Source: a virus
Taxonomy: Duplodnaviria; Caudoviricetes
Length of the DNA stretch: 64,000 bases
Strand: one strand, 5' to 3'
Virus record (IMG/VR): IMGVR_UViG_3300032007_000052
Coordinates: 1 to 64,000 of that record
Shown: positions 1 through 37,291 of the stretch, one piece after another
Numbering within the stretch: the first letter of the stretch is position 1
How the letters are laid out: the number at the start of each line of letters is the position of its first letter
Notes under the pieces: model-generated
What the model was told of the DNA's origin: nothing
Seen by the model: only the letters and a program-made list of their open reading frames with translations
Database searches by the model: none
Program-made: the position numbers and the translations under genes

Positions 1-16
1 CCTAACAAAAATGATA

Positions 17-157
17 AAATATAAACCGTCTCAAGCCATTAAAGCTTGTATAGCCAATGATGCAAACGAATAGAAGTTGCACGACTAAACAAGCGACGGT
101 AGGTTTGACTGCCAAAAGGTGAGGCTAAAGCACTCACTAAAGCCTTGTAAATTTGAG
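17..157 (+). ncRNA. tracrRNA-like/leader RNA with 5' anti-repeat
   Basis: ACCGTCTCAAGC (25-36) pairs with the repeat 5' end GTTTGAGATGGT using two G-U pairs on the + strand. It is followed by stems CATT/AATG, TGCAA/TTGCA, GGTAG/CTGCC and GTGAG/CTCAC. Confidence 0.55.
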
Positions 158-505
158 GTTTGAGATGGTAATAATTTAACAAGGGTCTCAAACTTGCAAT
201 AATGTTCTAGCTTCCAATTGTCTCGTTTGAGATGGTAATAATTTAACAAGGGTCTCAAACCTGATGACGAATATTCTGTATCTCATAAGGGTTTGAGATG
301 GTAATAATTTAACAAGGGTCTCAAACTCAGTCAGGTGCTCAACGAAGAAGGCCTAGTTTGAGACGGTAGCAAAATTACAAAGGTCTCAAACTGGCTTACC
401 GGATTTGATGTTCCATCCCTTGTTTGGGATAGATAACAAGGTTCTCAAACATCATCGATTAGATGAGAATAATGTAAAAGTTTGAGACGGTTTTAATTTA
501 ACGAG
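158..505 (+). CRISPR. CRISPR mini-array, 36-nt repeat GTTTGAGATGGTAATAATTTAACAAGGGTCTCAAAC, 5 spacers of 29-31 nt
   Basis: Identical repeats at 158-193, 225-260 and 291-326; degenerate repeats at 356-391 and 422-450; partial repeat from 480. Spacers are unique. Repeat and spacer lengths and GTTT...AAAC ends are type II-like. Confidence 0.93.
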
Positions 506-515
506 AAATAAGGTG

Positions 516-551
516 AAAATGGAAGGAAATTTAATTTTCTTCCATTTTTTT
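516..551 (+). terminator. intrinsic terminator after CRISPR array
   Basis: AAAATGGAAG...CTTCCATTTT hairpin followed by a T-run. Confidence 0.7.
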
Positions 552-570
552 ATTGCTTAGAAAGGTGTTG

Positions 571-2151
571 ATGACAGTGAGCGGAAGAATATTAATCACT
601 ACTGATGTCGAAAACATTACAAGTGAAAATGTCATATCGGTTATTCAAAAAGCCTTGTCAAAGCACCAAACTAACGCGGCTGAAATTCAAGAGTTATTGG
701 ACTTTGAGGAAGGCGAACAGCCACAACCAAGAGAAAAAAAATACAGGCCTGAAATTGATATCAATGTTGTTGACAATATTGCAAATGAAATTGTTGAATT
801 CAAACTTGGATATAACTTTGGATATCCAATTACGTTCAAGATGAGGAATTCGACAGATGGGATGATTGATGCTATTCAGGAATGGAATGATCAATATTTT
901 TTGTCTGATGCAGATTCTAATAACATAGAGCTTGCAAGATATTTAGAAATCGGTGGAATTTGCTGCACATATATTGATATAAATACTGAATGGGAAGAGG
1001 GCGAACCGTATTATATTAGGACAGTGCTTAATCCCAGAACTTCATTTGTAATTTATTCTTCTTACTATTACGACAAAAGACCGATGCTAGGTGTTACTTA
1101 TCGTAAAGATTCAGATGGTATTATTCACTATACCGCTTTTTCCAAAACAGATAGATATGAAATTAAAAACTGGAAAATAATAAATGACGATACGGGAGAG
1201 ATTAATGAGTATTGGTCTCACGAAGAAAGAAGTGGGGAAAAGAATCCTTTAAACATTATTCCGATTGTAGAGTATTTTAGAAGCTATGACCGTATGGGGT
1301 GTTTTGAGAGACAGATTCCGGAGCTTGAAAACATAAATTTACTTTTGAGTGATTTTTCAAATGACGTTGACCAGAATACTCAGGTGGTATGGTGGGCGAA
1401 TGATTGTGAGTTTGATACTGAAGAAATTACAGATGAGGAAGGAAATGTCACGGAGATTGTAAAGCATCCTCGGTCTAATGACTGGCTTCAAACTTTTACT
1501 ACGAGAGATGGTAAGATTCCAAAGGTCCAACCTTTGACAGTAACATATGATTATGCGGGGATTTTAAATAGTATTATAACTCAAAGAGCGTTAGTTCTTC
1601 AGAAGTGTAATGTTCCTCAAAGGAATGATAATTCTGGTGGTAGCACTGGCGTTGCAATGAGTGATGCTACTGGATGGAGTGCGGCTGAAACTGCGGCTGC
1701 AAAAGAAGAAATGGTTATTGCTAAATCTATTAGGCGAGAGATAAAGGTTATTTGCGCTGCAATTAGAGAGAGCAGATGCCCTGAAGATAGTCCTCTTAGA
1801 AAGATTAATTCTGCTTTGCTTGAACCTAGTATTAAACGTCAAAAGAGCTATGAATTGTCTGTTAAGACTTCTGCGATTGCGACTCTTCTTCAGCAAGGTT
1901 TTGTGCTTGAGGATGTTTTGGACGCTGTTACATTGTTTTCTGATCCGGCGCAGGTTATCGAACGTAGTGGTGAGAGTGTCAAAGATAAACAAAATGCTAA
2001 GGATTCAAGCGAAGAAATAAAAGAGGATGAGGATGTTAAGTTTGGTGCTGAGGATCCTGCTAATCAGATTTCTAATAGCCCTTTGGTTGATGGTATGAGT
2101 AAGGAAAAGGTTGAGACTGTTTCGGTAGAGAAAAAACATGTGGTTCAATAG
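571..2151 (+). CDS. phage portal protein (SPP1-like)
   Basis: About 526 aa, first gene of the head module, NPLNIIPIVEY...GCFERQI segment typical of SPP1-type portals, RBS AAAGGTG before ATG 571. Confidence 0.85.
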   Translation: MTVSGRILITTDVENITSENVISVIQKALSKHQTNAAEIQELLDFEEGEQPQPREKKYRPEIDINVVDNIANEIVEFKLGYNFGYPITFKMRNSTDGMIDAIQEWNDQYFLSDADSNNIELARYLEIGGICCTYIDINTEWEEGEPYYIRTVLNPRTSFVIYSSYYYDKRPMLGVTYRKDSDGIIHYTAFSKTDRYEIKNWKIINDDTGEINEYWSHEERSGEKNPLNIIPIVEYFRSYDRMGCFERQIPELENINLLLSDFSNDVDQNTQVVWWANDCEFDTEEITDEEGNVTEIVKHPRSNDWLQTFTTRDGKIPKVQPLTVTYDYAGILNSIITQRALVLQKCNVPQRNDNSGGSTGVAMSDATGWSAAETAAAKEEMVIAKSIRREIKVICAAIRESRCPEDSPLRKINSALLEPSIKRQKSYELSVKTSAIATLLQQGFVLEDVLDAVTLFSDPAQVIERSGESVKDKQNAKDSSEEIKEDEDVKFGAEDPANQISNSPLVDGMSKEKVETVSVEKKHVVQ

Positions 2152-2178
2152 GGCAGAATGGCATTATAGGGAGTTATT

Positions 2179-2850
2179 ATGGAAAATAAATCAATTGACG
2201 AACTTAATGCTATGTCGGGTCAAAAATCAAAGGTCAAGTTTGAAAATAAGAACAAGAGTAGTGATGGTTTTGATTACGTAGATTTTATTAATCATTATTT
2301 TGATGTCATGAAAGTTCCTAAGAGGCAAAAGGAAAAACGGATTGATGCTTCTAAGGAACTTTTTGATGTTATTTTATTTTTTCTTGTCTGGTGTGATAAG
2401 GTTTCGAAGCCTTTAGACAATAAGACTTTGAGAATGTTTGAAAATAGGTATAGGGAAGTTGTTTTTCAATATGGAGAGTCTGACGAGTATTTTGATAAAT
2501 ATATCCCTTTTATTGTAAATGAGATTGTTGATACTACTTTCAAACATAAAAGGGATGAGTATTACACGTCTGTCAAGAGGGCAGCTTCAATTGCTGTTAA
2601 TGAAGCTAATAGTGTGATAAATCATGCGGAACTTATAGATGCAATTGAACTTGGGTACAAGTATAAGATTTGGAATACTGAACAGGATAATAGTGTTAGG
2701 GAAACTCACAAAGACCTTCAGGGAGTTTCAATTCCTATTAAGGATCATTTTATTGTGGGTTTATATGAGATGGACATGCCTCATGATACGACATATGGGG
2801 CAGGGGCTGAGGAAATTAGTAATTGCAGGTGTTGGTTGACGTATAAGTAG
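2179..2850 (+). CDS. minor head protein (MuF/gp7-like)
   Basis: KIWNTEQDNSVRETH and C-terminal NCRC motifs; follows portal. Confidence 0.8.
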   Translation: MENKSIDELNAMSGQKSKVKFENKNKSSDGFDYVDFINHYFDVMKVPKRQKEKRIDASKELFDVILFFLVWCDKVSKPLDNKTLRMFENRYREVVFQYGESDEYFDKYIPFIVNEIVDTTFKHKRDEYYTSVKRAASIAVNEANSVINHAELIDAIELGYKYKIWNTEQDNSVRETHKDLQGVSIPIKDHFIVGLYEMDMPHDTTYGAGAEEISNCRCWLTYK

Positions 2851-2871
2851 TGCGAATGTGAGGTGTTTAAT

Positions 2872-3063
2872 ATGGCTATAAATAGCATTAATAGTACGAC
2901 GCAGAACGGTGTTGGCCACTTATGCGTTGATTTTGCAACTGATATGGCTGATTTACCGGAGTATGCAAGAAGTAACAATCTTAGAGAGGGTACAGACTGC
3001 ATATGCATTGAAGATGGCAGGGTTTATATGATGCAGTCAACTTTTGAATTTAAAGAAATCTGA
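2872..3063 (+). CDS. small hypothetical virion-module protein
   Basis: ORF with GAGGTG RBS inside the structural operon. Confidence 0.6.
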   Translation: MAINSINSTTQNGVGHLCVDFATDMADLPEYARSNNLREGTDCICIEDGRVYMMQSTFEFKEI

Positions 3064-36724: not shown

Positions 36725-37291
36725 TTATACTATATCAGAATATCCTAGAAGCATCTGGTCTTCTTCATAGGAACTTACACCTAAATATCTTTGAGTAATA
36801 GCAGGACTGCTATGTTGATAAAAATTCATTACTTTAATAATGTTGTAGCCACTTGCTTCATAGAGATTCATTCCACAATATTTCCTAAATGAGTGAGTAG
36901 ATATGTTTTCATATTCCAAAAAATCACATACCTTTTTTAGATATTTTTGAACTGATCGTTCTGTCATAGGGAATATGAGATCATTTTTCTTTATTTCATT
37001 TTCCTTGATGTATAAGTTCAAATGCTTATAGAACTCGTGACTGATGCTCTTGTAGCGTTTCTTTTTTGTTTTCTGCTCAATTATACTAATCTTATAAATA
37101 CCACCCGCAAAAACGAAGCTAGAGGGTTTTAAAGCTAATACATCCTCAATACGGATTCCTAAATTTGCTTCGGCTATAAGAACTTCTGATATTCTGATGT
37201 TTGGTTTGAAATAGTATGAGCCTGTTCTCATTGCTTCGATAATTGTTTTATATTGGTGTCTGGTTAACGGTACTGTTGCGTATGCTCCCAT
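36725..37291 (-). CDS. small tyrosine recombinase (catalytic domain only)
   Basis: R (GIRIED), K (EQKT), HSFRK, H (QHSS) and Y (TQRYL) all present. Confidence 0.88.
   Translation of the reverse strand: MGAYATVPLTRHQYKTIIEAMRTGSYYFKPNIRISEVLIAEANLGIRIEDVLALKPSSFVFAGGIYKISIIEQKTKKKRYKSISHEFYKHLNLYIKENEIKKNDLIFPMTERSVQKYLKKVCDFLEYENISTHSFRKYCGMNLYEASGYNIIKVMNFYQHSSPAITQRYLGVSSYEEDQMLLGYSDIV

Follow-up and report, generated by a model that had tools for sequence, protein, structure and literature searches.

Positions 1–551 of the window, the 64,000-nt stretch of tailed-phage DNA analysed here (positions 1 to 64,000 of IMG/VR record IMGVR_UViG_3300032007_000052), are the second copy (B) of a tandemly duplicated unit composed of a promoter, a tracrRNA and a CRISPR array. 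The duplicated unit follows a gene for a Cas12f protein in which two RuvC catalytic residues are replaced, and one of its spacers matches hsdR, the gene for the restriction subunit of a type I restriction system, in genomes of the Lachnospiraceae. We lean toward a model in which the phage uses a dead Cas12f for CRISPR interference against host restriction, and not for cutting DNA. This model, the best supported of those considered, rests on a protein that is dead but conserved, on a cognate tracrRNA with its arrays, and on a perfect and retained match to hsdR, from which we infer repression of that gene. The features of the window that enter the argument are the following.

1–5, + strand: end of a duplicated stub (~18 nt) of the dead cas12f 3' end, with the stop equivalent at 3–5; the intact gene lies outside the window
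15–20, + strand: −10 hexamer with TG extension in the promoter of tracrRNA copy B (10/12 consensus match, 17-nt spacer)
25–36, + strand: 5' element, formerly taken for the anti-repeat, complementary to repeat nucleotides 1–12/13 and partly to the tracrRNA tail
25–157, + strand: tracrRNA copy B, assigned to type V-F1 from covariation and from homologous modules beside Cas12f genes, continuous with repeat 1
44–94, + strand: long-range stem 44–53/85–94 enclosing hairpin 62–80 (four and two compensatory pairs, respectively)
98–113, + strand: hairpin 1, with compensatory changes in 5/6 stem pairs
118–137, + strand: hairpin 2, with a conserved GUGAG/CUCAC stem (100% paired in eight loci)
141–152, + strand: 3' anti-repeat tail, pairing with repeat nucleotides 16–27
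158–515, + strand: CRISPR array B, six repeats and five spacers
392–421, + strand: spacer B4, matching the sense strand of host hsdR where the WLTGFDVPSL helicase motif is encoded
515–549, + strand: predicted intrinsic terminator ending the tracrRNA–array transcript
553–2151, + strand: portal protein gene (phrog_64, 3.9e-42), a neighbour outside the CRISPR system

Duplicated tracrRNA and array modules

The phage record (G000) is circular and 94,032 bp long, and its terminal 112 bases are a copy of its first 112. Window positions 1–112 equal G000 93921–94032, the sequence preceding window position 1 is G000 up to 93920, and the circularity of the record makes the DNA 5' of the window readable. 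This upstream DNA contains a 477-aa Cas12f ORF at G000 91617–93050, upstream of the window across the circular junction, bearing out the original prediction that a compact effector lies there. Directly 3' of the ORF is a stretch 83% identical to window 1–326, which holds structured RNA copy A and array A, the latter from G000 93209 onward. Decayed repeat remnants and a terminator (G000 93871–93893) come next, followed by a stub of the cas12f 3' end, an identical promoter, RNA copy B and array B; the duplication begins near G000 93906. Module B runs in the order promoter, tracrRNA, array, terminator, beyond which is the portal gene that had been placed beside the array. The gene end formerly read at position 24 in frame 1 is in the wrong frame, the true stop equivalent being that of the short duplicated stub.

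Array B contains three identical 36-nt repeats (158–193, 225–260 and 291–326) and three decaying ones (356–391 with 6 mismatches, 422–450 truncated, and 480–515, a half repeat), confirming the repeat count that had been read from the letters. Its spacers, at 194–224, 261–290, 327–355, 392–421 and 451–479, measure 31, 30, 29, 30 and 29 nt, as the anticipated range of 29–31 nt requires. Arrays A and B have three perfect repeats each and have their two oldest spacers in common, with few differences, while their newer spacers and repeat variants differ.

An identical promoter, with a 10/12 consensus match and a TG extension, precedes both tracrRNA copies and predicts a transcription start at about 26–28. 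For copy B, the −35 element is at G000 93912–93917, just 5' of window position 1. Promoters and terminators are conserved in both copies, and the terminators are found only 3' of the arrays. A search of positions 1–700 returned the terminator after the repeats as the sole terminator-like site, in agreement with its earlier placement on the + strand and with the claim that none stands ahead of repeat 1. Each module probably yields a single RNA from its own promoter, reading from the tracrRNA through repeats and spacers to the terminator, which is the cis tracrRNA–array transcript that had been envisaged. The best promoter match of the region (11/12) lies elsewhere, between array A and promoter B (G000 93814–93893, equivalent to L002 2269–2348); a terminator hairpin about 27 nt past it would give a predicted transcript of about 50 nt.

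The structure of the RNA is defined by changes that preserve pairing. RNAalifold with five close relatives places four compensatory pairs in stem 44–53/85–94 and two in hairpin 62–80, whose 11-nt loop is invariant even in L008, the locus of a 63%-identity relative. Covariation supports the three hairpins that had been proposed (62–80, 98–113 and 118–137). It favours the 44–53/85–94 stem over a nexus-like CATT/AATG stem, which found no such support and was dropped. The 6-nt loop of hairpin 1 (103–108) is complementary to the final 6 nt of every repeat, forming a pseudoknot-type anti-repeat. In an eight-locus alignment this loop and the repeat end are paired in 96% of cells with two compensatory positions, and none of 500 shuffles reached any of the five measures. 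Loop and repeat 3' end occur in four matching states across all loci, including a further state in locus L163. The 3' tail forms a duplex of 7–12 bp with the repeat in this phage and in L133, L010, L008, L018, L019, L020 and L022. This tail-to-repeat pairing was judged by complementarity in each of the eight loci, while the loop-to-repeat pairing was judged by covariation.

A type V crRNA retains the 3' half of the repeat upstream of the spacer, and both repeat contacts of this RNA, loop and tail, fall on that half. A homologous RNA module adjoins Cas12f genes in more than 10 loci. It stands 3' of Cas12f in the close relatives L012, L133 and L010 and in L008, and is present in more distant loci from assemblies of Butyrivibrio, Ruminococcus, Anaerotignum, Treponema and Erysipelotrichaceae, among others. 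Judged by its pairing and its neighbours, the RNA is a Cas12f tracrRNA and not one of Cas9 type. Beside a 47%-identical Cas12f homologue of a Roseburia sp. (L017 4269–4370), the core of hairpins 1 and 2 runs into a single repeat-like segment without an array, an arrangement resembling a naturally occurring single guide or omega-RNA. Duplication of the module is a recurrent event: in a Cas12f locus from a Butyrivibrio MAG (L021 4231–4960), a second tracrRNA and array likewise stand in tandem with the first, and a dead piece of the cas12f 3' end, longer than the stub in this phage, comes before them.

The 5' element at 25–36 is complementary to repeat nucleotides 1–12 with two G-U pairs, as had been reported, and to 13 nt of the sister array's repeat with one G-U. 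A complementary run of at least 12 appears in 24 of 2,000 dinucleotide shuffles, making it moderately unlikely by chance. The element coincides with the predicted transcription start. L010 has a broken version of it, and L008, L018, L021 and L022 have none. In the consensus fold it pairs with the tracrRNA's own 3' tail; its role may be to mask that tail or to supply the missing part of a split anti-repeat of full length. The expectation that related loci would conserve the anti-repeat and the stems holds for the stems, through their compensatory changes, but not for 25–36. Likewise, anti-repeat:repeat pairing stands, although the anti-repeats borne out across loci are 103–108, by covariation, and 141–152, by complementarity, both on the 3' half of the repeat, and not the element facing its 5' half.

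The type II framing that accompanied the element fares poorly, and a role for the RNA at 17–157 as a type II-like tracrRNA, or as a viral guide, in the borrowing or subversion of a host Cas9 is very improbable. Such a role would account for a complement of 12–13 nt to the repeat 5' end at the predicted start of the RNA, and phage guide RNAs that subvert Cas9 do exist (bioRxiv 10.64898/2026.06.01.729453). It would also suit a resemblance between the 3' ends of the phage repeats and the starts of the type II-A repeats that two Lachnospiraceae genomes contain. Read as reverse complement, the 17 nt that end one repeat copy in L133 (1376–1392) are identical to the 17 nt that begin those type II-A repeats; the same mirror identity extends over 15–16 nt in two other repeat copies and 14–15/17 nt in the intact repeats of the window (177–193, 244–260 and 310–326). 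The type II-A loci compared are L139 431–4616 and L140 7135–8227, and one of the genomes has cas9-cas1-cas2-csn2 by a 64-repeat array. The proposed comparison with host repeats has yielded a likeness in reverse orientation, with 25/36 positions alike overall; it may reflect a common ancestry, a decoy role of the RNA or adaptation in trans. Against a Cas9 partner, no Rfam tracrRNA matches window 1–3000 at E values up to 10, no terminator follows the RNA, the phage encodes no Cas9, and 0/79 type II-A spacers from those two hosts match the phage. The 25–36 element is not conserved, and the module is always beside Cas12f and co-varies with the repeat 3' end.

No cas1 or cas2 was found in the whole 94 kb, and no sigma-70 region 2 domain (Sigma70_r2) in the phage. 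The search for cas9 gave just a 13.6-bit N-terminal match at G000 65499–65681, outside the window, where a 463-aa open frame weakly matches the N-terminal RuvC segment of Cas9. This frame is probably an IscB, and the phage may carry two RNA-guided systems. The sole recombinase found is a small (~200 aa) tyrosine recombinase at window 36776–37267 on the − strand, which could serve in integration or dimer resolution. No close relatives were found in IMG/VR by protein or repeat pattern or in JGI metagenomes by repeat pattern, and GenBank phages searched with the region gave no relevant match. HicA/HicB toxin–antitoxin pairs are encoded a few genes ahead of cas12f in L011 (2825–3438) and L006 (4861–5504), a setting common to contigs with the dead Cas12f (475/477 identical) and with the nuclease-intact relative.

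A Cas12f with replaced RuvC residues

The 477-aa ORF matches the Cas12f1-like TNB domain of Pfam, guided_TnpB of NCBIfam (1.3e-33) and the full-length Cas12u3/Cas12f model of PADLOC (2e-78). Its matches among PDB sequences are Al3Cas12f (1.9e-48), CnCas12f1 (1e-47), RhCas12f (4e-37) and Un1Cas12f (4e-26). By these profile and sequence matches it is a Cas12f (type V-F) with RuvC and zinc-finger (TNB) domains.

The RuvC triad of this protein reads S240/Q338/D437. Among 78 homologues found, more than 60 have D/E/D, and P0002, the full-length relative nearest to the phage protein (63% identity, from a phage-like contig), is one of these. In alignments with solved Cas12f structures, S240 and Q338 fall at the catalytic D and E, while D437 and the zinc finger are intact. 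Serine and glutamine at the first two positions (GVSLG, INMQDL) are shared by the phage protein and P0004, and the glutamine is also present in the P0005 fragment; P0004 and P0005 are the two closest relatives of the phage Cas12f. Comparison with the 86%-identical S/Q relative in L010 gives a saturated pS of 0.76 and a pN of 0.088, a pN/pS of about 0.1. A protein 475/477 identical, with the same S/Q/D and an intact ORF, occurs in four sequencing runs. The substitutions and the substitution rates together characterize a RuvC-dead Cas12f under strong purifying selection, in which the loss of the catalytic residues is old and tolerated.

Two observations in related loci concern the fate of the gene. 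L010, a single metagenome contig, has an in-frame TAA at codon 177 (398–400), which may be a sequencing error or gene loss in that lineage. A second, independent RuvC-dead lineage is found in L163 (2294–4064), where the triad reads D/L/G and the gene is accompanied by a tracrRNA and a 3-repeat array. The L163 element carries a ParM-like (ALP_N) gene, and its hairpin loop and repeat end co-vary again. Its spacers, searched against 341 genomes, gave no credible host target, only AT-rich chance matches.

The hsdR match and its interpretation

Spacer B4 is retained in three arrays: B, A (copy A6, with three differences; two changes are of non-synonymous type) and the variant contig L133, which holds a fragment 98% identical to the dead Cas12f and a single tracrRNA–array unit. 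Targets were sought in 401 genomes of the Lachnospiraceae, the family that includes the Pseudobutyrivibrio MAG in which the nearest relative is found. B4 matches one hsdR site in at least 10 of the 401 with 1–5 mismatches, the best match being 29/30. The L133 copy matches genome G285 at 30/30, or 31/31 with the adjoining base (E 6e-9 per genome). The target gene encodes HsdR by TIGR00348 (5e-161) and by its HSDR_N, SWI2/SNF2 and C-terminal domains, and the partial B4 matches in plasmid records all fall in genes annotated as the type I restriction R subunit (HsdR). B4 reads as the sense strand of hsdR in every matching genome, with a conserved 5' flank, GATATG. In G285 the gene belongs to a defence island (L151, G285:C51 44000–57992) with hsdS, FRG, hsdR, DndB-like, GIY-YIG, McrB and McrC on one strand; the genus of this host is represented by two genomes only.

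The array of the nuclease-intact relative, searched as a control against the same genomes, gave no spacer match better than E 1e-4. All spacers other than B4 lack a credible target in 401+34 Lachnospiraceae genomes. Several candidates were rejected as chance matches, lying in different genes with 5–9 mismatches concentrated PAM-proximally: B5 in G001 and G429, B2 in two genomes, B3/A5 near hsdR in G129, and A7 with its adjoining remnant in many genomes.

These elements suggest a sequence of events for silencing. The tracrRNA would bind the 3' half of each repeat by its hairpin loop and 3' tail, as is typical of Cas12f guides. Since Ser and Gln occupy the first two RuvC catalytic positions, the complex should bind DNA matching a spacer and not cut it. 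B4 being the sense strand, a crRNA from the + strand would pair with the template strand of hsdR, the orientation in which DNase-dead Cas12a represses best by blocking elongation (PMC5460296). RNA polymerase would then be blocked inside hsdR, sparing the upstream hsdS and possibly reducing expression of the downstream genes of the island. The benefit to the phage would come from repression of hsdR.

Several points weigh against dead-Cas12f silencing of hsdR. Only one of the roughly 15 distinct spacers has a target, and that spacer, B4, occupies the old, decaying end of the arrays. The GATATG flank is not obviously T- or C-rich as a Cas12f PAM would be, and the second dead lineage, L163, is without a host target. 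Some lineages may be losing the gene, as the in-frame TAA of L010 illustrates. Finally, silencing of hsdR after infection cannot shield the incoming genome from HsdR protein already in the cell; it would instead be of help during replication, in subsequent rounds of infection or in a carried state.

Other explanations have to account for the same locus. The system might still cut or nick DNA, or use a host nuclease, against competing phages and plasmids, with the hsdR-like spacer aimed at a mobile element that carries a type I restriction-modification system. This is unlikely, since two of the three RuvC carboxylates are replaced throughout the S/Q clade and, in related enzymes, single Ala substitutions at such positions abolish interference, as with Cas12r D238A (bioRxiv 10.64898/2026.04.20.719267). 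Viral targets also failed to appear: exact 19–24-mers of five spacers were not found in IMG/VR apart from a single chance 19-mer in a GC-rich contig. What a cutting system does explain is the number of spacers without a host match, the presence of partially matching hsdR genes on plasmids as well, and the intact D437 and zinc finger; there is a reported precedent in type V systems that phages direct against integrative elements rich in defences (bioRxiv 10.64898/2026.04.20.719267).

A dead guide complex could alternatively have another job, such as recruitment of a factor, regulation of a non-defence gene or guided recombination, with the hsdR match as a relic. Precedents are the dCas12f homologues that work with a sigma factor to activate transcription (PMC13472631) and the TldR proteins with which prophages remodel flagella; most spacers, moreover, are unexplained. 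This too is doubtful, to a degree comparable with residual cutting: a sigma-70 region 2 domain is missing from the phage, its own genome offers the spacers no match within 8 mismatches, and the hsdR spacer is kept in three arrays with one copy a perfect match. Degenerate distal repeats, absent adaptation genes, a dead active site and the in-frame stop in L010 could also mark the locus as a decaying, non-functional remnant of a CRISPR locus acquired by the phage. That is improbable, and more so than either of the preceding explanations, for a gene with a pN/pS of about 0.1 at saturated synonymous sites and an ORF intact in several samples; each array, moreover, has three perfect repeats, promoters and terminators are conserved in both copies, and compensatory changes maintain the tracrRNA stems.

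Silencing of hsdR by a dead Cas12f is accordingly the reading that we retain. More tentatively, the locus may be a programmable CRISPRi cassette, in which the tracrRNA and multi-spacer arrays make up an RNA-guided anti-restriction device. Such a device would stall transcription of hsdR at its most conserved stretch, and perhaps that of downstream defence genes, leaving the methylase genes on so that progeny DNA is modified; the other spacers would be guides against further, unsequenced host or rival genes. In the literature searched, we found neither a dead Cas12f that a phage carries and programs through arrays nor an hsdR-directed CRISPR spacer used for silencing of this kind. To our knowledge, the phage counter-measures to restriction described so far are proteins, namely DNA mimics, methylases and base modification, and the natural repressors guided by RNA come from bacteria or prophages, each with a single fixed guide. 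If the proposal is correct, anti-restriction and RNA-guided repression would meet in a counter-defence that can be reprogrammed, an exchange of spacers allowing it to keep pace with the defence genes of the host. At 477 aa, the protein would in addition be a very small natural scaffold for CRISPRi, with a tracrRNA that is already defined. Every part of the locus, from protein and promoter to tracrRNA, repeat, target and flank, is delimited, making it directly testable.

Comparison with known RNA-guided systems

A comparison with type V-F1 systems (Un1Cas12f/Cas14a, CnCas12f1, Al3Cas12f and RhCas12f) shows a common architecture. The phage locus has the same effector family, size and zinc-finger TNB domain, a tracrRNA of ~130 nt between gene and array, 36-nt repeats with spacers of roughly 30 nt, and a guide that retains the 3' half of the repeat. 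It differs in that S/Q replace the D/E of RuvC, so that the D-E-D triad is not intact. It is also carried by a phage and lacks cas1/cas2/cas4, although cas1/cas2, present in many V-F1 loci, are not obligatory there. Furthermore, its tracrRNA–array module is duplicated, and its tracrRNA is fused to the array in one predicted transcript unit. Judged by sequence, the RuvC triad is what separates the locus from a working V-F nuclease, and PAM-dependent, RNA-guided cleavage of dsDNA is predicted to be absent; the effector family, the tracrRNA pairing and the array agree with V-F1.

Phages that carry their own CRISPR systems provide a second comparison. The Vibrio phage ICP1 uses a type I-F CRISPR-Cas system against PLE. 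Cas12r of Thermus phages is a phage-borne type V effector that cuts defence-rich elements (bioRxiv 10.64898/2026.04.20.719267). Like both of these, the present phage has its own effector and array, with a spacer to host-resident, defence-related DNA; the ICP1 system and Cas12r cut DNA, while the dead Cas12f, given its triad, should only bind. Phage single-guide RNAs that subvert Cas9 by silencing cas9 (bioRxiv 10.64898/2026.06.01.729453) are likewise phage-encoded, guide-type RNAs for counter-defence by silencing, which in the present case is the putative outcome. No phage effector accompanies those guides, which act on host Cas9, whereas the RNA described here has a co-encoded Cas12f.

The closest functional parallels are with nuclease-dead relatives. 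Bacterial dCas12f proteins that drive or repress transcription are known, as is a dCas12f cluster found beside CRISPR arrays, with guides sometimes directed to efflux gene promoters (PMC13472631). They resemble the phage protein as Cas12f descendants with an inactivated RuvC domain that are proposed or shown to regulate transcription. Their inactivation is largely by C-terminal truncation, whereas the phage Cas12f is full length with point substitutions. The sigma-E dCas12f systems use single guides without a tracrRNA, in contrast to the tracrRNA and array of the phage, which has no sigma factor; the phage system is also distinct in being phage-borne and in matching a defence gene inside its ORF. 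Prophage TldR copies repress host flagellin; they are RuvC-dead, RNA-guided proteins encoded by a mobile element and aimed at a host gene, as is predicted for the phage Cas12f. TldR has one fixed omega-RNA-like guide at a promoter, in place of which the phage has multi-spacer arrays with a tracrRNA and a match in the body of a restriction gene. Despite these differences in guide architecture, the phage locus and the dead RNA-guided repressors have two features in common: loss of RuvC residues under purifying selection, and a guide complementary to a cellular gene, which in this phage is hsdR, through one spacer.
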